A stretch of DNA of 64,000 nt from a virus, in IMG/VR virus record IMGVR_UViG_3300047483_000537, positions 32,600 to 96,599 of that record. The stretch is one strand, 5' to 3'. Shown piece by piece: positions 3,095 to 33,000 of this stretch. The notes beneath the pieces are model-generated. The model was not told the origin of the DNA and made no database searches. It was given only the letters and a program-made list of their open reading frames with translations. The position numbers were made by a program, and so were the translations under genes. The stretch's first letter is position 1. Each line of letters begins with the position of its first letter.

Positions 3095-3853
3095 TTAATT
3101 ATTATAAGCTAAAATAACTTGCTTACACATTTGTGATCTAACAATATCTTCATCACGAAAACTAACGACACTAACTCCTTCAATATGTTGTAAACGCTTT
3201 ACAGCGTCCATAAGACCTGAATCTGAAATGTCTGTTTGTTTTGGATCTCCTGATAGGATTACTTTACAGTTTTTTCCGATGCGTGATAAGAGCATCTTGA
3301 ATTCTGTTTTGGTTAAGTTTTGGGCTTCGTCTACAAGAATAATACAATTCTCAAAACTAGCTCCACGCATAAACCCCAGCGGTTTAGGATCAATATCTTT
3401 AGCCCTCAAGGAATATTCATAAAAACCTTTGCCAAGTGCTTTAGTAAACACTTGGTCAAAAGGTTGTAGATATGGTGCATATTTCTCGTCCAGCTCTCCT
3501 GGCAAGAATCCCATACCGCGTCCTGTTTCTACGTTAGGACGTGTTAGAATAATTTTATTTACACGTTTGTAATACAGTTCTGCTGCAGCGTAACTAGCAG
3601 CTATATATGTTTTACCTGTACCGGCGCTGCCTATGCCAAAGATAATATCTGAATCTTCGATTGCATTTAGGTACTCGCTTTGAATGAAGTTTAGTGGCTG
3701 AACTTCTTTAAACGTATAATTACGTTGAGGTATTGGTTCTGCAAACCCTTCCTCGTGCTCTTTACGCAGCCTGGCTTTTTCCTCATTAGATATGTGGTTG
3801 CCGGACTTTTTACTTGGAAATGTGCGATGTGTTTTACCACTATTTCTTGCCAT
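3095..3853 (-). CDS. phoH: PhoH-like ATPase
   Basis: GSAGTGKT Walker A, GFLPG, FMRGASF, LVDEAQN, SGDPKQTD. Confidence 0.95.
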   Translation of the reverse strand: MARNSGKTHRTFPSKKSGNHISNEEKARLRKEHEEGFAEPIPQRNYTFKEVQPLNFIQSEYLNAIEDSDIIFGIGSAGTGKTYIAASYAAAELYYKRVNKIILTRPNVETGRGMGFLPGELDEKYAPYLQPFDQVFTKALGKGFYEYSLRAKDIDPKPLGFMRGASFENCIILVDEAQNLTKTEFKMLLSRIGKNCKVILSGDPKQTDISDSGLMDAVKRLQHIEGVSVVSFRDEDIVRSQMCKQVILAYNN

Positions 3854-3931
3854 GAACTTCCTTATTTTTGGATAGACGTTGAAGTGAATATTAAATTATA
3901 CCACCTCAACACCTTGTGGTCAATATAAAAT

Positions 3932-4117
3932 TTACTTAGCCTGTTTGTCCGGTACTTTAGTACCTTCTAACTTCTTGTGTACTTTGACGTCTTTACAAAC
4001 TTCCTTGACTTTTTTAGTTTTAGGATCGGTTTGCTCTACACAAACTTTCTTTGTTTCCGCAGCAAAAATGCTGGCGCCAAAGCAAGTTAATGCTACTGCT
4101 AAAATTATTGATTTCAT
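3932..4117 (-). CDS. small exported protein
   Basis: Signal-peptide-like N-terminus, two further Cys, Lys-rich mature part. Confidence 0.65.
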   Translation of the reverse strand: MKSIILAVALTCFGASIFAAETKKVCVEQTDPKTKKVKEVCKDVKVHKKLEGTKVPDKQAK

Positions 4118-4573
4118 TTAAATCTCCGGTTGAGGTGCTGGTTGAGGTGCTGGCTTACCATTAATCATACGAACTTCCATTACTGCGGTACCGTTAAACC
4201 CTGCTGTAGTAGATAGTCCTGGTGAAAAAGTAGGCTCCTGTCTGGGAGGTACATAGCTGGTTTTTGCAGCTGCTGCGGCGTTATCTTGTGCTTGCTTCAT
4301 TAATGCGATTGAAGCATCAACTTCTTCTTTACTGCCGCCTGCCAACATAATTCCCGATAACGTGCCTGTTAAAAATGTAGCAATTGGTACAATTAGTTCA
4401 AAAAACTTTTGATCAATAGGACTAATAGCATTTAGTGGTTGTGTTACAAAGATTAGGCTGTAAAGCACAACAAAAACAATTCCTGTTAGTGTAAGTGCCA
4501 AGCACACACCAATAAAGAATTTAAGACGAGCCATCAATTGCTCGTCTGTGTATAAGATAACATTATTTTGCAC
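4118..4573 (-). CDS. two-TM membrane protein
   Basis: Two hydrophobic segments (FFIGVCLALTLTGIVFVVLYSLIF; LIVPIATFLTGTLSGIML). Confidence 0.65.
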   Translation of the reverse strand: MQNNVILYTDEQLMARLKFFIGVCLALTLTGIVFVVLYSLIFVTQPLNAISPIDQKFFELIVPIATFLTGTLSGIMLAGGSKEEVDASIALMKQAQDNAAAAAKTSYVPPRQEPTFSPGLSTTAGFNGTAVMEVRMINGKPAPQPAPQPEI

Positions 4574-4832
4574 AAGTAACTCCTGTGGTTGGTGTGGGTG
4601 TGGCTGCCGCTGGCGTTGCCTGAGGGTCTATACGTGGGTCTCGTTGACCTTTAAAAACGTGGTCTGGGCATGTGCGAGTTACATCACAGATAGGTCGCTT
4701 GCACTGAGGTGTATCCCAGTTTTCTGGATTTTGACATGGGTAACGAAAACGATCTCCACCAAAAAATGCAAGTGCAACTGGTAGTATTAATAATACTCCT
4801 AGCCACTTAAATAGTTTTAAATCTACATTCAT
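4563..4832 (-). CDS. membrane-anchored Cys-rich protein
   Basis: N-terminal TM segment, then RYPCQNPENWDTPQCKRPICDVTRTCP. Confidence 0.65.
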   Translation of the reverse strand: MNVDLKLFKWLGVLLILPVALAFFGGDRFRYPCQNPENWDTPQCKRPICDVTRTCPDHVFKGQRDPRIDPQATPAAATPTPTTGVTCAK

Positions 4833-4833
4833 A

Positions 4834-5397
4834 TTATTTTCCTGCTAGTGGATTGTCGATTGCTTTTTGAATCTTATCATCAACACTTTTATTTAAGCGT
4901 TCTAGTTTTGTTTCTAAATCGCGCTTTAATTTGTCCATGTCATCTCTGTTACGATCTAAACTATTACGCAAGTCTTTTTGAGCTGTTTTTAAATCTTGAT
5001 CAGTTTCTCGCTGAGCCTGCTTAACGCTTCGCTCTATTTGTTCGGTTACGCTCTCATTACGACGTAGATCAGTTTTAAGATCATTTTTTATATCGCGAGT
5101 ATAGTCACTGGTTTTTTGCGAGTTTTCTTCAATAACAGCTAACCGCTTGTCAAATTCACTAAGATCTGGAGCCGAGTATTCGGCAATCTTTTTCTTCATG
5201 CTCTGGTAGTCTTTGTAAACTTCAAAAGCACCGTATAGTCCGCCCAATGTAGAGCTAACAATTGTAAAAGCTACCATTAATTTAGCAGGAGTAAATTCAT
5301 ATCCGCCAATACTAATAACGGTATCTTTACTAGCATATTTTTTAGCGGCTGCTTCTAGTTCAGCAACTTTTTTGTCTATATTTTTATCATCAGACAT
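4834..5397 (-). CDS. membrane-anchored coiled-coil protein
   Basis: One TM segment followed by a long charged heptad-rich region. Confidence 0.7.
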   Translation of the reverse strand: MSDDKNIDKKVAELEAAAKKYASKDTVISIGGYEFTPAKLMVAFTIVSSTLGGLYGAFEVYKDYQSMKKKIAEYSAPDLSEFDKRLAVIEENSQKTSDYTRDIKNDLKTDLRRNESVTEQIERSVKQAQRETDQDLKTAQKDLRNSLDRNRDDMDKLKRDLETKLERLNKSVDDKIQKAIDNPLAGK

Positions 5398-5405
5398 TAT
5401 ACCTC

Positions 5406-5816
5406 CTATTTGTTCTCAAATTTTAAATTTTTGAGATTTTCCAGCTCTCGCTCTAGTTTTTGAATTTCTATACGTTTTTTTCGCAGTTCCAACTGGTAAA
5501 GCTCATTACAATCTAGTCGATCTTTTGGAGCTCCTATTGGTATAGTAATTCTTCCGTAAACACCGACATTTCTGCTCGGATCATTTGTAGCAGTACTAAC
5601 AATAGTAGTATCTCTATTTATAACACCTACTACGCCAAACTCAACGTTAGTACTAGAACCTATAGCCATTGAGCAGTCAAGACCATTGGCACGAAAGCTA
5701 TCGGATTGATAACTACTGTACGAACCTGGTAGTGCTAAATTTAGTGAACCTGTTTGAGCATTTACTATTGAAGTTCCTAACAAGCAAATAAATAAGAGGT
5801 ACTTGTTAATATTCAT
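5406..5816 (-). CDS. exported protein with C-terminal coiled coil
   Basis: Signal peptide ending VNA, beta-rich middle, Cys pair, helical tail. Confidence 0.65.
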   Translation of the reverse strand: MNINKYLLFICLLGTSIVNAQTGSLNLALPGSYSSYQSDSFRANGLDCSMAIGSSTNVEFGVVGVINRDTTIVSTATNDPSRNVGVYGRITIPIGAPKDRLDCNELYQLELRKKRIEIQKLERELENLKNLKFENK

Positions 5817-6202
5817 GGTTTAACTTTTGAACAAATTTTACTAGCTATAAGGCTCTGTCTAGTGTTATTTCGAAACAGTCTAGATTCTGTACATATATAC
5901 ACCACACGTTTAACATCTTGAGTTTTAACATATATATCTATATTTTTAGTCTCAAGATATTCTACACGTAAAATCTTGCTATCGGAACTAGCAAAAGTTA
6001 CAGGCCGCCAATCTTCATCAAATACACCAAGCTCATAGTAAGAAACCTCTTGTCGCTTGTTAAATAGTTCCATTTTTGTTTGCATTACTCCGTCTATAAA
6101 TGACGTCTCAAACTTAGGATAAGTAGGAGTGAACTGGTGAGCAGAAACCTGCCCACCAAATAAAAATAGTACAAACACTAATAAAGTGTAGTAAAAACGC
6201 AT
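5813..6202 (-). CDS. exported protein, possible pilus-chaperone (PapD-N)-like Ig fold
   Basis: Signal peptide ending VSA; alternating beta-strand pattern (FTPTYP...MELFN...YELGVFD...IDIYV...YICT); fold assignment by eye. Confidence 0.45.
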   Translation of the reverse strand: MRFYYTLLVFVLFLFGGQVSAHQFTPTYPKFETSFIDGVMQTKMELFNKRQEVSYYELGVFDEDWRPVTFASSDSKILRVEYLETKNIDIYVKTQDVKRVVYICTESRLFRNNTRQSLIASKICSKVKP

Positions 6203-6206
6203 TATA

Positions 6207-6704
6207 TTACAGAGCTATACACTCCGCTAACACTACAGCTCGATACTCTCCTGCAGGGAAAGATTTATCGTAGCCGTATTCTGCTTTTGATGTTGCGGCA
6301 AACCAAACAGTACCTGGTACAGTTAAATTGATTTCGGTAATATTATTATATACGCGCTTGTTAGTGGTATAGGCTGACATAGCTGGATCTGTAACACGGC
6401 TTACAGTAACGGCACCTGCCCAATTTACAACATCCGTTAATCCTGGACTTGAAGTAAATGCATTTGGCGTTGTTATTGTTGCTTTGTAGTATCCTGCTTG
6501 AACTACGTCATAGCGAATAACAGCTGGAGCACCACCGTCTACGGCGGCCGTGCTTAAGACATTTGGTGTAGGGTTACCATAAATACCTACTGTATCTGTG
6601 TTAATAACACATTTAGAAGATACAACTCCACGGATTGGCACTTCGGCTGAATTTACGCCGAATGAGATAGCTAGTGCCATTGCTAATAGTATCGATTTAA
6701 TCAT
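6207..6704 (-). CDS. exported fimbrial/pilin-subunit-like protein
   Basis: Likely start MIKSILL; signal peptide; N-terminal VPIRGVVSSKCVI and C-terminal PAGEYRAVVLAEC resemble chaperone-usher pilin termini. Confidence 0.5.
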   Translation of the reverse strand: MIKSILLAMALAISFGVNSAEVPIRGVVSSKCVINTDTVGIYGNPTPNVLSTAAVDGGAPAVIRYDVVQAGYYKATITTPNAFTSSPGLTDVVNWAGAVTVSRVTDPAMSAYTTNKRVYNNITEINLTVPGTVWFAATSKAEYGYDKSFPAGEYRAVVLAECIAL

Positions 6705-7551
6705 TTCTTGGTCCTCTGAGATTATATTGTGACTCAACCATTGTATTATGCAACTGCTGCTGGCTTAGATTTAGTCTTTGACTATTTCGGCTGTCGGGCA
6801 GAACTTTGTCCCTATACTTTATGGTTTCTTGATAAACACCACCAGGTAAAGCTACTGTGTATAGTTTAAAATCTGGTATATTATTTAGTGCTTCAAGTGC
6901 AGCGGCTTGAGCAGCTGCTTGTGCAGTTATCAAAGAGTTGCTGCTCTTATTGTCTTTAAGCTTCTTTTCTTTCGGCTCAGTTAATCCGAAACGACGATTT
7001 GTTTCTAGGGCTTCTTCACTATCATAGCTGTACTTAGCAAATTGTGGCAATGTGTCAGAGTTTAGTTCTGGTAATTTTGTTTGCGGTAATTTATAGTTTG
7101 GACAACTTGTGTCAGTAACGGGCTCTAATTTACAAGTATCATACCTATACCCATAGCTTACAAAAGGGTCTGTGACACTGCCTTGTCCTTGAACAGTGAT
7201 TTCTCCACGACCCCAGCTTGTAACCGGAATATTATCAACTGGTACTATTTTTGTTATAGTATTTCCAGGCCTTGCTGTCCAATCGTCCACACTACGAAAA
7301 ACATATCCGTTGCCATTTGTATGAAGGTTTTGTATACTAACCACCATTGGATCTTCTGTATTTTTAACAGTAGTATATCGGTAATTAACACTGTTTACTG
7401 TTAACCCTGTGTACTGTGGAAGTACTTTGGTCATAGTCCACGATAAACCAAAAGCGGCGGCATTTGAAGTTTTATCAGTAATAGTTTCAGAGTAAGAGTA
7501 GCAAGAGCAGAACCATAAGGCCACCACCACCAAGTAGTGTTTTAGTTTCAT
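6697..7551 (-). CDS. exported protein
   Basis: Signal-peptide-like N-terminus, beta-rich domain, Cys pair, helical C-terminus. Confidence 0.65.
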   Translation of the reverse strand: MKLKHYLVVVALWFCSCYSYSETITDKTSNAAAFGLSWTMTKVLPQYTGLTVNSVNYRYTTVKNTEDPMVVSIQNLHTNGNGYVFRSVDDWTARPGNTITKIVPVDNIPVTSWGRGEITVQGQGSVTDPFVSYGYRYDTCKLEPVTDTSCPNYKLPQTKLPELNSDTLPQFAKYSYDSEEALETNRRFGLTEPKEKKLKDNKSSNSLITAQAAAQAAALEALNNIPDFKLYTVALPGGVYQETIKYRDKVLPDSRNSQRLNLSQQQLHNTMVESQYNLRGPRND

Positions 7552-8032
7552 TGCTTATACCTCCACTGTTTGTTTTGGTACTTGGCTGTAGGCCTTCATT
7601 AGCCTTCCAAGCAGCACGTGCTTCCGAACCAATCGACCCGTCAAATGGACAAGGGGTACCTGCCATCATCATAGCATCAAACACTCGTCTGTCTTGGCAT
7701 AGCGTGCTTACCGCAGCTACTTTCATACCCATGTCATAAAGTGTTTTTGATAATTTTAGTCGTTCACAATTAAGGTCCACTACTGTAGCACCAGCACTAA
7801 TACCCAGGATTTGAGTTTGTACAGCACCGGCTACACCAACAGTACACAAGTCACTATTGGCTGTATTAATAGTAGGACTAATAGCGGATGCTGGTGGTGA
7901 TTTAATAGTGCTGTTACTATCGGATTTAGTAGTAACAGTGCTATTGGTATTTACTACTGCATCTTGAGCTAATACTCCACTTGCAAATAGTACTAGAAGT
8001 AGTATTGCTACAAAATATTTAAGTTGAAGCAA
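7487..8032 (-). CDS. exported Cys-rich protein with C-terminal membrane anchor
   Basis: Signal peptide ending VLA, four Cys, C-terminal GGGGLMVLLLLLLL. Confidence 0.65.
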   Translation of the reverse strand: MLQLKYFVAILLLVLFASGVLAQDAVVNTNSTVTTKSDSNSTIKSPPASAISPTINTANSDLCTVGVAGAVQTQILGISAGATVVDLNCERLKLSKTLYDMGMKVAAVSTLCQDRRVFDAMMMAGTPCPFDGSIGSEARAAWKANEGLQPSTKTNSGGISNETKTLLGGGGLMVLLLLLLL

Positions 8033-8033
8033 C

Positions 8034-8660
8034 TTATCCTCCTAGTACATGCAATGCATGTTCGTAGTGTTTTTTCCGATCTTCTAGGCCGATAGTGCCG
8101 CCATTAATGCGCTTAGTTAGCATTAGAATATCACCAGCATCTGCCCATTGATTTAGTTTATTGGTTTCCCAAAACCAGCAGGCTGATTGTGCTGCACCTT
8201 CAAATGTTTCCAAGTATTCTGCAGCTTCTTCTACACTAATACCTAGTGAGGCTGCAAACCAAGTGTAGTTATCCTTGCCAGTTAACTGAATTAGGCCTTT
8301 ACCTGCAAAACGCCAGCCATCACCGGATTCTGGAGGTCCGTTGCCCATGCGATTAGCATATACTAAGTTGGCAATTGCTTGTTGCTTGTTGGGCATTGTG
8401 GCATATTTCTGTGCCATTTCATCCGTGGGAAAATACTTGGGAAATATTTTTCGTAGCGTGACTGCTTTGTAGTTTAGATTTTCACGTAGCGCAGTAAAGT
8501 TTCCGGATTCGTGAGCACACTGTGCTACAAAAGCAGCAATACGACGCGGAGTGTTAATCTCGTAGTCTGGCAGTAATTGAGCTAACGCCTGATGCCACTG
8601 TTTGACATAAGGGTTTTTAGGGATCAATTGTTGCAATTGAGATAATGTTAGTTCTGTCAC
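8034..8660 (-). CDS. endolysin, glycoside hydrolase family 19
   Basis: AQCAHESGNF, ENLNY, YANRMGNG, GDGWRFAGKGLIQLTGKDNY, TKRINGG. Confidence 0.92.
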   Translation of the reverse strand: MTELTLSQLQQLIPKNPYVKQWHQALAQLLPDYEINTPRRIAAFVAQCAHESGNFTALRENLNYKAVTLRKIFPKYFPTDEMAQKYATMPNKQQAIANLVYANRMGNGPPESGDGWRFAGKGLIQLTGKDNYTWFAASLGISVEEAAEYLETFEGAAQSACWFWETNKLNQWADAGDILMLTKRINGGTIGLEDRKKHYEHALHVLGG

Positions 8661-8923
8661 TTTAGTCCCTTATGGATAAGTTGTTGTTGTTGATACCACT
8701 GCTGCCAGGCTTCTAATTTAACTACACACTGATAGTATTGTGTATAGTTACGATTAATAATTTGAGCTACTTGACTCAACGTAGGGTTTTCTGCAAGAGC
8801 TTCAAGTTCTGGGCAAGGTTGCTGGCTTTGCAGACCTGGGGGCTCCGGCCACTTCTGGGTAACGGGTACAACTGTGGAGCACCCAGTTAAAAATAGTGTT
8901 AATACTAGCAGTGCAATTTTCAT
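8657..8923 (-). CDS. o-spanin (Rz1-like lipoprotein)
   Basis: Lipobox LTGC, Pro-rich, next to the endolysin. Confidence 0.8.
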   Translation of the reverse strand: MKIALLVLTLFLTGCSTVVPVTQKWPEPPGLQSQQPCPELEALAENPTLSQVAQIINRNYTQYYQCVVKLEAWQQWYQQQQLIHKGLK

Positions 8924-9339
8924 TTAGGTGCCTTTGCTGCTAAGTTATGCGCTGTAACAAACTCAACAGGTATCTGACAGCCTGAGTCGTGTTTTGTTAT
9001 TTCGCGGGTAATATATTCAACTGTGGCTTCACCACGTTGTTTTATAATCTGAGTTTTAGTAACTACACGCTCTTTTATAACTTCATTTACTTGTTGTGAC
9101 TTTGCTTCTGCAACTTCAACTTTATGTTGCAAATCTTTGGCGGCTTGTTTCCATACACCATTAGCATATAACAGTCCAATTATAAAAATTATTACGCATG
9201 CCAGTATACCACTAACAATTTTGACAGGCAGTTGATATGTTTTTATAGGAACCAAATGCGATAAAAAATATCCGGAAAATCCAGCTATTAATAACAACCC
9301 CCACAACCAATGTGGAAAAATTTCTAAAATCCAAAACAT
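8920..9339 (-). CDS. i-spanin (Rz-like)
   Basis: N-terminal TM segments, coiled coil, C-terminal Cys; overlaps the o-spanin start. Confidence 0.75.
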   Translation of the reverse strand: MFWILEIFPHWLWGLLLIAGFSGYFLSHLVPIKTYQLPVKIVSGILACVIIFIIGLLYANGVWKQAAKDLQHKVEVAEAKSQQVNEVIKERVVTKTQIIKQRGEATVEYITREITKHDSGCQIPVEFVTAHNLAAKAPK

Positions 9340-9362: not shown

Positions 9363-10121
9363 TTACGATTTTATTAATCGTATTACCCTCCAACTTACAT
9401 CCAGCTCCCACCATTTTTCACCAAAATTGGGTCTGCCAGGAAACCGGTGATGATTATTATGCCAGCCTTCGCCCCACGAGAAAAAAGCCAATAAAGGATT
9501 ATTTCTACTATCGTCGGAGGTTGCATATCGTTGCATACCGTAAGTGTGTCCAAAAAAGTTAGCTGCAGCGCTGCCTAAAAAAACAAATGCCACTGGTACA
9601 AAGTGTCCAAAGATTACGCCGTTGAGTCCAAATAGCGCATACAAAGCCAGCACCCACACAATATGCAATGCTAAAAAATACTTGTGTAGTATGCGATAAA
9701 ACGGATCACGAAGCATTCTAAATACGGTTTTGCTGCGCGTTTTTTCGGAAGTTTTATAATTAAGCATCCACATATTTAGCGCACCGTTTTTAGGCGAATG
9801 AGGATCGCGGCTAGTATCAGAAAACTTATGATGATTGATGTGTTCAGCAACCCAGGAAATTGCACTACCAGTACCTGCCAAATGACCAAAAAACGCAAAC
9901 ACGCGCTCTTTCCAAATAGACATTTTAAAACTATTGTGGGTAAGGTACCTGTGAAAAGTTACTGCAATACCTAAACATCCATATAAAAAGTAAAGCGCTA
10001 CTGCAAGTGCCCAATGTGCTGCAGAGCCTCCTTGGTACAAAGCGTACGCAAGCATTGCAGTAGAGATCGCCCCAACAATCCTAAACTTTACAGGGGTCAT
10101 TGTAAAAAATGAATTAATCAT
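9363..10121 (-). CDS. membrane fatty-acid desaturase (delta-9-like)
   Basis: Three His boxes HRYLTH, HINHH and GEGWHNNHH, plus DPHSP and TM segments. Confidence 0.93.
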   Translation of the reverse strand: MINSFFTMTPVKFRIVGAISTAMLAYALYQGGSAAHWALAVALYFLYGCLGIAVTFHRYLTHNSFKMSIWKERVFAFFGHLAGTGSAISWVAEHINHHKFSDTSRDPHSPKNGALNMWMLNYKTSEKTRSKTVFRMLRDPFYRILHKYFLALHIVWVLALYALFGLNGVIFGHFVPVAFVFLGSAAANFFGHTYGMQRYATSDDSRNNPLLAFFSWGEGWHNNHHRFPGRPNFGEKWWELDVSWRVIRLIKS

Positions 10122-31863: not shown

Positions 31864-33000
31864 TTAAGCAGCGTTAGTAGTGTAGTAACGAACTTCAAGT
31901 TCGTTAGCAGAACCAATTTCAAACGCTCCGCTAGCAGAGCCTTGAGCTGTGAAGTTAATTGTTGTAGAAATAACTTGTTCAGTTGCAACAGTTGGAATTG
32001 TTAATACTGCAGCCGGCATTTCGAACTCAACACGAGTAGCATTTGCAGCACCACCAACTTCTAGTTGTACAGAGAATGCTGGGTCTACGTCTGTTGTGCT
32101 ACCTGCTAACATATCTGCTAACAAGCCAGCACTGTTAGTACTACCTGCACGTAAGTAGCAATTTAAGCTACCTGAAATAGCACGAGTACCTGTAAAGTAT
32201 GTGAATGGACGGTTAACAACACCTAGGTTAGCTGGTGTTAAGTAAGTTAGGTTGTTGGCAATTGTTAAGTTACCGCCTGTGATAGCTACGTTGTAAGTAG
32301 TACCTGTACCGTCGATCTCTTTCTTTAGGGTTAGAGTGCTCAACTTGTTGGCAATAAACGGAGCAGTAGTATTTTTACCTTTAGCAGTTCCAGTTAGTCC
32401 ACCACCAAATGTTACTGTTGCGCCTGTGGTAGCTGTTAGACCTGCGATTTGGCGCAAGATAGCACCTTTACCAGCCCAAGCAACCATAGCAATAGCATCT
32501 AGGCCAAAATCAACTGTTGCTGAATCAAGAGCACAGTTGTCGATAATGTAGCTAACGCCGTCAATAACAATGATTAGACCAAATTTTTGTAATTGGTGAC
32601 TGTTAGAATTACCAGCAACTAGAGTAGCGGCACTAGTACCTTCTGCCCAAGCTGCATTTGTACCACCAATAGGGTCTGTGGCAAACAGTGCGTTCCATAG
32701 TACTGATTCTTCACAAGTGATATTTACGCCACCGTCGGCAGGACGCATGTATGTGCTCATGGAGAAATCAACTGGTTCTAGTGCAGTATTAAAACTACGC
32801 TGACCACGAACAGGTGCTGCACCTGCTTCTGTTAGAGTAACTGTTTCAGCAGTTGTATTTTGACTAAAACTAAATCCATCCAGAACCTGGATTTCACGAG
32901 TATTAGTTGCATCGAAGCCTGAACCGGCTACTACACCTGTTTCCGCATTTACGTTAGTCGTGAAAAATACGCGACTATTACGAATTAAATTAAATGACAT
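31864..33000 (-). CDS. major tail tube protein
   Basis: NLIRNSRVF, EIQVLDGFSFSQ, FTGTRAISGSL resemble T5 pb6; position in the tail module. Confidence 0.85.
   Translation of the reverse strand: MSFNLIRNSRVFFTTNVNAETGVVAGSGFDATNTREIQVLDGFSFSQNTTAETVTLTEAGAAPVRGQRSFNTALEPVDFSMSTYMRPADGGVNITCEESVLWNALFATDPIGGTNAAWAEGTSAATLVAGNSNSHQLQKFGLIIVIDGVSYIIDNCALDSATVDFGLDAIAMVAWAGKGAILRQIAGLTATTGATVTFGGGLTGTAKGKNTTAPFIANKLSTLTLKKEIDGTGTTYNVAITGGNLTIANNLTYLTPANLGVVNRPFTYFTGTRAISGSLNCYLRAGSTNSAGLLADMLAGSTTDVDPAFSVQLEVGGAANATRVEFEMPAAVLTIPTVATEQVISTTINFTAQGSASGAFEIGSANELEVRYYTTNAA

Follow-up and report, generated by a model that had tools for sequence, protein, structure and literature searches.

The window analysed here, a stretch of 64,000 nucleotides (nt) from the IMG/VR virus record IMGVR_UViG_3300047483_000537 (positions 32,600 to 96,599), possesses on its minus strand nine consecutive genes, g1 to g9, at positions 3932-8032 directly after an endolysin gene. 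The whole record measures 96.6 kb and is rated 91% complete (CheckV); its phage bears the label 'T5-like', which is taken over here as an assumption. A first-pass annotation, made from the sequence alone, had described a single module of nine tightly coupled open reading frames (ORFs), each with a signal peptide or transmembrane (TM) segment, and all nine ORFs were confirmed. They complete a string of twelve genes arranged head to tail, which begins with an i-spanin-like gene, a LysC-like o-spanin gene and a glycoside hydrolase 19 (GH19) endolysin gene and continues with g1 to g9. The successive gaps are -4, -4, +1, -65, -8, +4, -4, +8, +1, -11 and 0 nt, i.e. between -65 and +8 nt throughout. 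Export features are readable in 9/9 proteins: g1, g2, g3, g4, g5 and g9 start with a signal-peptide-like segment, g7 with an N-terminal anchor, g8 contains two TM segments, and in g6 a single segment of moderate hydrophobicity (residues 38-58) precedes a coiled coil. The Cys pairs noticed earlier in several ORFs proved invariant across homologues in five proteins (g1 C63/C89/C112/C128, g2 C140/C150, g3 C32/C162, g4 C104/C124 and g5 C48/C103). Scans of all nine proteins against Pfam, NCBIfam, PHROGs and PADLOC returned only PHROGs of unknown function and coiled-coil noise, and PDB sequence searches with profiles of g1, g2, g3 (at two depths), g4 and g5 gave no match. The arrangement supports the view that the nine genes make up the distal portion of a late operon for lysis and envelope functions, probably co-transcribed with the lysis genes, in agreement with the earlier proposal that a lytic phage produces these envelope proteins late in infection.

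Although contiguous in the window, the nine ORFs do not constitute one unit. A g3-seeded scan of viral contigs recovered 31 loci, in all of which g1-g6 are syntenic; g7-g9, the lysis genes and phoH are found among them only in close T5-like relatives. A g6-seeded scan yielded at least 550 confirmed loci, 80 of which, on contigs of 4-364 kb, were kept, and gene presence was scored with profile hidden Markov models of each gene in the 56 loci with enough flanking sequence. In 56/56 of these, g1 lies upstream of g6 at a distance of 2.2-4.1 kb (median 2.85 kb). Genes g3-g5 are present in 11 of the 56, always together with a short form of g2, and absent from the other 45, and g3, g4 and g5 co-occur without exception in both sets of loci. 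Because g1-g6 are syntenic in 31/31 and the frame from g1 to g6 is kept in 56/56 loci, the association of the genes is far beyond chance, and their co-occurrence in many aquatic phages is what the first-pass annotation had expected of a true module. The module has three layers: a core of g1, g2 and g6, an accessory trio g3-g5, and a clade-specific tail g7-g9. The core is defined by the constant frame from g1 to g6, by the g2-type C-terminus that always follows g1, and by the restriction of g3-g5 to 11 loci. It travels as a cassette between unrelated phage backbones, which comprise T5-like phages, T4-like phages (with DNA polymerase B and gp32 as neighbours), jumbo phages of 330-364 kb and podoviruses.

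The core gene g1 (7487-8032) encodes a signal peptide, a short Ser/Thr/Asn-rich stretch, a highly conserved four-Cys domain of about 100 residues and a hydrophobic C-terminal tail (GGGGLMVLLLLLLL). The domain, whose alignment displays long invariant runs, includes a Gly/Ala-rich hairpin bracketed by the disulfide C63...C89. Pfam, NCBIfam and PDB sequence searches with g1 gave no match, and an Atlas search with its domain gave no usable one. Longer g1 forms (767 matches) all represent N/T/S-repeat extensions, with no informative domain fusion. The same DNA, read in two frames, codes for the hydrophobic tail as well as for the g2 signal peptide: g1 and g2 overlap by 65 nt in the window (7487-7551) and by 65-74 nt overall, including loci L002, L016, L030, L035, L048 and L062. 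Since the tail is absent from L056 and L105, where g1 and g2 do not overlap, and from the homologue of phage Mosig, the C-terminal anchor is specific to a clade and not a feature of the family, occurring only where g1 overlaps the signal-peptide region of g2. The earlier description of g1 as a C-terminally anchored, Cys-rich protein thus holds for the clade of the window and does not extend to the family.

The second core gene, g2 (6697-7551), is present in the window in its short form. After the signal peptide comes an N-domain rich in beta structure (residues 22-155, C140/C150), then a charged, hypervariable linker and finally a conserved C-terminal domain (205-277) with the motif ...LPD...H..MV..QY. 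The gene following g1 always ends in this same domain of about 70 residues (hhalign against long g2: probability 98.8%, over the C-terminal 69 columns). Its length is bimodal, with 278-322 aa in the 11 loci that contain g3-g5 and 504-864 aa in the other 43; judged from this pattern, g3-g5 plus a short g2 are one alternative to a long g2. That long g2 might contain the domains of g3-g5 is unsupported, as its hhalign comparison with these three genes gave no match. Of all genes in the string, g2 evolves fastest, with a median identity of 51% in close relatives, compared with 91% for the endolysin and 81% for g6, and with 80-91% for endolysin, g8, g6 and g1 taken together. Its N-terminal region is swapped wholesale between loci, and the C-terminal domain is kept. 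One locus (L045:5192-6976) encodes, between long g2 and g6, an exported protein of 594 aa whose end, ...ITWKF, resembles an outer-membrane beta-barrel signal; it could be an outer-membrane component of that cassette variant.

The third core gene, g6 (4834-5397), encodes a predicted N-in membrane anchor (residues 38-58), a periplasmic coiled coil of about 130 residues and an invariant C-terminal D-N-P-L-A. It is 59-82% identical across the kept g6-seeded loci, and scans with the family returned weak coiled-coil-type matches only and no spanin family. The signal peptides of many members of the cassette families (g1 and g5, e.g. in L035, L048, L062 and L105) end in ...A|Q, with Gln as the first mature residue. 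Such ends are typical of exported proteins of Bacteroidota, and the pattern may be a host clue for part of the cassette family.

The g1 family comprises at least 8,000 clusters at 90% identity in metagenomes. Among cultured phages its domain is found in six pelagiphages (HTVC202P, HTVC115P, HTVC023P, HTVC033P, Baldr and Mosig), with three of which g1 shares 70-73% DNA identity (blastn), as well as in the roseophages CRP-207 and CRP-810 and in Ralstonia phage RSP15. HTVC115P possesses a g1-like gp54, a gp53 with a g2-type C-terminus and a g6-like gp49 (E 6e-34), located directly after the genes of a Gly-rich tail fibre and a fibre chaperone. T7-type phages keep their lysis genes at that spot after the tail-fibre genes. 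Two genes past the HTVC115P cassette, gp46 (L140:8511-8960) is a toxin-activating lysine acyltransferase of the HlyC type (Pfam HlyC, E 1e-15) and adjoins a 685-aa protein without family match; a phage acylating its own protein would be unusual. The myophage Mosig has the same gene order, with a coiled-coil protein ending in NPLAG. In CRP-810 (L034), gp51 (5219-5641) is annotated 'lysozyme' and is really a g6-like TM coiled coil ending in NPLGR without a lysozyme domain, and gp53 (3833-4588), annotated 'OmpA family protein', carries the g1 domain and has no OmpA match in Pfam. Cellular genomes (one per species, 185,579 prokaryote species) contain only 24 g1 matches (L116-L139). Since all of these are contigs of metagenome-assembled genomes with mutually inconsistent taxonomy, their assignments including such unrelated phyla as Melainabacteria, Actinomycetota and Methanobacteriota, they appear to represent mis-binned phage DNA, and the cassette is exclusive to phages. 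Our literature search found no published description of it.

The accessory trio contains the genes that had suggested a pilus. Gene g4 (5813-6202), earlier called a short chaperone with an immunoglobulin (Ig) fold, encodes an exported single-domain protein of 129 aa (about 107 aa mature). Its AlphaFold2 (AF2) model (predicted local distance difference test score, pLDDT, 82) has as top VIA matches the first domain of chaperone-usher chaperones (chaperone residues 1-115), with the whole mature chain covered: FimC (Z 9.7, root-mean-square deviation 3.5, 98 residues aligned), SfaE (9.5), Caf1M (9.4), SafB (9.3-9.5) and PapD (9.1). MSP/VAP domains and unrelated Ig domains follow closely (CsxA, Z 9.3), so that the margin of the chaperones over unrelated Ig domains is about 0.4 Z. 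The last two strands carry the invariant C104 and C124, a position like that of the F1-G1 disulfide of chaperones of the Caf1M/SafB type. No match to the PapD_N profile (PF00345) was obtained with g4. On the strength of the model, g4 is predicted to have a PapD/MSP-like half-chaperone fold. Its mature chain starts with His (H22) directly after an A-x-A cleavage site in 16/16 homologues. A mature chain that always begins with His is not known from chaperones, and the residue could belong to a His-brace-like metal site or be required for processing.

The adjacent g3 (6207-6704) encodes an exported beta-sandwich with an invariant C32 near the mature N-terminus and C162 near the C-terminus. The pilin-like termini reported for it are retained even in members 20-27% identical, as F/I-x-G-x-V-x-x-x-C at the N-terminus and FP-x-G-x-Y-x-A...C at the C-terminus. 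The fold is less specific. The AF2 model (pLDDT 84) reaches Z 7.4-7.7 in its best VIA matches, which are MSCRAMM adhesin domains, the archaeal CanA subunit, Gram-positive pilins and generic Ig-like domains, all with Z < 8, a range that VIA guidance assigns to common arrangements. Chaperone-usher pilins are not among its top 50 by Z. In Foldseek they (PapG pilin domain, FimF/G, CsuA/B, CfaB and CupE) appear only with TM scores of 0.3-0.43, among carbohydrate-binding modules and MSCRAMMs. A fold search of BFVD with g3 found no annotated viral relative. Neither g3 nor its distant relatives match a Pfam family, Fimbrial (PF00419) included, or a PDB sequence, and clustering of this small family at 50% identity gives 114 clusters. 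An Atlas feature search provided one lead, to a cluster in which 14% of the members carry SCPU; a search with the SCPU profile (PF05229) gave no match, in a run in which its controls did not ring either. As modelled, g3 is best described as a generic adhesin-like beta-sandwich, not specifically pilin-like. The structural comparison proposed by the first-pass annotation therefore upheld an Ig, chaperone-like fold for g4 and did not uphold a specific pilin fold for g3.

The product of the remaining gene of the trio, g5 (5406-5816), is exported; it combines an amphipathic beta-hairpin bracketed by Cys (C48...C103) with a coiled coil at its C-terminus, which ends in F-E-N. It matches PHROG 37374 (function unknown, E 3e-9) and has no Pfam or PDB match. 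The similar layout of g1 and g5 (Cys, hairpin, Cys, helix) had made them candidate paralogues, a relationship that was rejected, as hhalign aligned their signal peptides only.

An outer-membrane usher, already noted as absent from the window by the first-pass annotation, is lacking at the profile level from the whole 96.6 kb record (PF00577; nothing at E <= 0.1, with the control ringing in E. coli), and the cassette contains no ORF of usher size (about 800 aa). Profiles of PapD, Fimbrial and CsgG (PF03783) likewise have no match in the 96.6 kb genome, the Fimbrial control ringing as well and the CsgG control ringing in four genomes. Because the fold of g4 is shared, that of g3 is only weakly similar and the usher, Fimbrial and CsgG profiles are absent, the resemblance to chaperone-usher systems is genuine in the fold of g4 and weak in g3, and it extends to no more than an optional part of the cassette. 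Pilin- and chaperone-like genes do not define the system: they are an insert found in 11/56 loci. The pilus framing is not supported, g3 being modelled as a generic beta-sandwich, no fimbrial or PapD profile of Pfam being matched and the core containing nothing pilus-like.

The first gene of the twelve-gene string (8920-9339) encodes an i-spanin-like membrane protein with a coiled coil; it has TM-like segments at residues 12-30 and 41-59 followed by a charged helical region, lacks a significant match in the Pfam scan and overlaps the next gene by 4 nt. The product of this second gene (8657-8923) is an o-spanin, an outer-membrane lipoprotein of the Rz1/LysC-like type whose lipobox, L-T-G-C, occupies residues 12-15; its match to Pfam LysC (PF23793, E 2.2e-5, 24.8 bits) covers the whole profile and lies under the curated cut-off of 27 bits. 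The endolysin (8034-8660) is glycoside hydrolase 19-like (Pfam Glyco_hydro_19, E 4e-4, below the curated cut-off), is 86-93% identical among related T5-like loci, and has its stop 1 nt ahead of the g1 start. At the downstream boundary of the module, just past g9 in the 78-nt gap ahead of phoH, lies the best promoter-like site of the region (3895-3923, minus strand), which is sigma-70-like (TTGACC-17-TATAAT with an extended TG, 11/12 positions matching) and is recognised by consensus match only. Its position in the gap suggests that phoH is transcribed apart from the envelope operon.

Peptidoglycan hydrolases of four families adjoin the cassette in at least four different backbones. GH19 is adjacent in the window, a Phage_lysozyme gene is located two genes after g6 in L030, behind two small membrane-protein-like genes without Pfam match, and Hydrolase_2 is found about 1.4 kb upstream of the cassette on the 146 kb contig of L020. 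A secreted Peptidase_S11 accounts for 4 of 81 flanking ORFs, downstream of the cassette in several loci.

Because of this gene context, a role in lysis or at the envelope is favoured. We tentatively read the nine genes as encoding a Sec-exported, disulfide-bonded and periplasm-spanning complex that acts on the envelope at or just before lysis and is not a pilus, a reading we find plausible while stopping short of calling it probable. Both the contacts between the cassette proteins and their activity are what we infer. In such a complex g6 would be an inner-membrane coiled-coil stalk of about 130 residues, pointing its invariant DNPLA end toward the outer membrane; this end would serve as the dock for two conserved domains, the C-terminal one of g2 and the four-Cys one of g1. 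A variable outward part, either the N-terminal part of a long g2 or a short g2 with g3 held by g4 and g5, might contact a host-specific component of the outer layer, and the disulfide-closed, Gly/Ala-rich hairpin of g1 would be the likeliest membrane-active element. Together with holin, endolysin and spanins, the assembly could help to breach or weaken the outer layers or to time their opening. The reading draws support from the string itself, which runs from the spanins through the endolysin to g9 without a gap above 8 nt and has a promoter-like site only past g9. Also in its favour are the export features and invariant Cys pairs, the constant frame from g1 to g6 across backbones, the neighbouring hydrolases, the gene order in HTVC115P and Mosig, and the restriction of the cassette to phages. 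A bolder version, rather unlikely in its full extent, would regard g1-g2-g6 as a new phage-exclusive trans-envelope machine which, besides spanins and cationic disruptin peptides, would give phages of Gram-negative hosts a further way to attack or control the outer layers as infection ends. There g6 would be the stalk, the g1 hairpin a membrane-inserting loop and g2 an exchangeable, host-specific targeting module, split in some phages into a short g2, the g4/g3 pair and g5.

Several observations weigh against a function in lysis. The phage of the window already possesses a canonical spanin pair and does not need the cassette as a substitute. In T4-like loci the cassette stands beside DNA polymerase and gp32 and not beside lysis genes, and no peptidoglycan hydrolase was recognised among ten HTVC115P genes scanned beside the cassette. 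Known lysis proteins are very diverse, and the extreme conservation of g1 and g6 is unlike them. Finally, the rapid evolution of g2 is a pattern that fits receptor masking as well.

The strongest competing explanation is receptor masking or superinfection exclusion. In it, g1 and g6 would form a scaffold for the variable N-terminal part of g2 (or, in the accessory form, for g3), which would bind either the receptor used by the phage itself or some other surface component, acting at the cell surface or from the periplasm. Later phages would be blocked and progeny kept from sticking to debris, as the lipoprotein Llp of T5 does for FhuA. We rate this explanation, together with these consequences, as rather unlikely. 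It accounts well for the divergence of g2 (median 51% against 91% for the endolysin and 81% for g6) and for the wholesale replacement of its N-terminal region beside a constant C-terminal domain. Tail-fibre or adhesin genes often directly precede the cassette (HTVC115P, CRP-810, L026/L030), and in the window a gp38-like gene is near it; all cassette parts are periplasmic or membrane proteins. The explanation fits poorly with the apparent co-transcription of the cassette with late lysis genes, as known exclusion genes (T5 llp, T4 imm/sp) act early, and the three to six conserved proteins, with their long trans-periplasmic coiled coil, amount to more machinery than exclusion is known to require. 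PADLOC provided no family match for the nine proteins, and the spackle match of g9 is insignificant.

A fibre or adhesin built by chaperone and subunit without an usher appears doubtful. Here g4 would cap g3 by donor-strand complementation, g3 would polymerise or be displayed, with g2 at the tip, and the hairpins of g5 and/or g1 would provide passage through the outer membrane. The best matches of g4 (domain 1 of FimC, SfaE, Caf1M and SafB, Z 9.3-9.7) with its invariant Cys on the last two strands, the fimbrial-like terminal motifs kept in the g3 family, the Atlas lead to the 14%-SCPU cluster, the low-scoring pilins in Foldseek and the strict association of g3, g4 and g5 are all in its favour. 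They are set against a genome without usher, PapD_N, Fimbrial or CsgG profile matches, a g4 with one domain instead of two and an advantage of only about 0.4 Z over unrelated Ig domains, and a g3 with all Z < 8 and no chaperone-usher pilin in the VIA top 50. The trio is moreover absent from 45/56 loci and therefore not the purpose of the system, whose core this explanation leaves unaccounted for, and a lytic phage would gain little from a pilus minutes before lysis. Very improbable, in our judgement, are virion or ejection proteins delivered with the DNA, whose hydrophobic N-termini would be membrane-insertion segments and not export signals. The cassette is indeed near tail-fibre genes in several phages, but the signal peptides look canonical, with A-x-A-type sites, and the invariant His of g4 forms the mature N-terminus directly after cleavage. 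The conserved Cys pairs of five proteins imply oxidative folding in the periplasm, and T4-like loci place the cassette among replication genes.

Compared with known systems, the cassette shares single traits with several. With the chaperone-usher pathway (PapD/FimC, Caf1M/SafB, archaic Csu/SCPU) it has in common the fold of chaperone domain 1 in g4, with invariant Cys on the last two strands, and an exported beta-sandwich with fimbrial-like terminal motifs in g3, the two genes being adjacent and always co-occurring. It differs in lacking an usher, the second chaperone domain and homology at the profile level; the fold of g3 is not specifically pilin-like, and the g3/g4 pair is optional within a phage-only cassette absent from cellular genomes. 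The two-component spanins (lambda Rz/Rz1, P2 LysB/LysC) resemble it in the i-spanin-like architecture predicted from the sequence of g6, an N-terminal anchor plus a periplasmic coiled coil in a protein that matches no spanin family, and in the location of the cassette inside or beside lysis cassettes. In contrast to o-spanins, a lipobox at the signal-peptide end is present in 0/9 of g1-g9, the real LysC-like lipoprotein being the separate gene at 8657-8923, and in contrast to spanins in general the core has three parts, including a large variable secreted protein, with sequences conserved across very different phages. The unimolecular spanin T1 gp11 recalls g1 of the window clade, which combines an N-terminal export signal with a C-terminal membrane segment; the signal of g1, however, is type I-like without lipobox, and the C-tail is lacking in L056, L105 and Mosig.

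Small exported phage proteins acting on the envelope, some of them next to receptor-binding genes, are also known from the exclusion proteins T5 Llp, T4 Imm and Spackle. These are single early genes, unlike a conserved multi-gene late cassette with a trans-periplasmic coiled coil, and have no sequence relationship to it. Among published systems, the closest parallel is the incomplete curli module (CsgG/CsgF) found in the pelagimyophages Mosig and Melnitz, which has been proposed as a lysis regulator (PMC9004378), and Mosig itself carries a cassette of the g1-g2-g6 type. Both systems provide envelope components without fibre subunits in abundant marine phages, with lysis timing as the proposed role of the curli module (PMC9004378). 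However, the genome of the window has no CsgG match, and the curli genes were captured from bacteria, whereas the cassette has no cellular counterpart.

Cultured phages that infect SAR11 and roseobacters are among the carriers; such virus-host pairs rank with the most abundant of the sea. The cassette genes are all still annotated as hypothetical or mis-annotated. As several carriers are in culture, the function is directly testable. If the cassette acts at lysis, it bears on how Earth's most numerous phages open their hosts, a step poorly understood in marine phages, as few of their lysis genes have been identified; as an exclusion device, it would widely help to determine how phages compete with one another.

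Further genes surround the cassette. In the record its neighbours include a dUTPase, a class II ribonucleotide reductase-like gene, PhoH, a gp38-like tail adhesin and an ORF of 2269 aa. A fatty-acid desaturase (Pfam, E 1e-21) is encoded on the same strand at 9363-10121, just upstream of the spanin genes; near the cassette of other phages a desaturase, a class 3 lipase, a Glu racemase and DUF4337 membrane proteins recur.

The clade-specific tail begins with g7 (4563-4832), which encodes a protein with an N-terminal anchor and a tail rich in Cys (5 Cys) and in Pro/Thr. It had no match in the family scans and occurs mainly in T5-like relatives (L002-L014), besides some g6-seeded loci (L041, L110-L114). 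Gene g8 (4118-4573) encodes a membrane protein with TM segments at residues 19-37 and 57-75; it belongs to PHROG 25359 (function unknown, E 1.5e-17) and is 87-93% identical in close relatives. The last gene of the operon, g9 (3932-4117), encodes a small exported Lys-rich peptide of about 41 aa when mature, with two Cys and a net charge of about +6. Its PHROG match to periplasmic spackle is not significant (E 0.07). The peptide resembles the cationic lysis peptides that disrupt the outer membrane, but bears a signal peptide.

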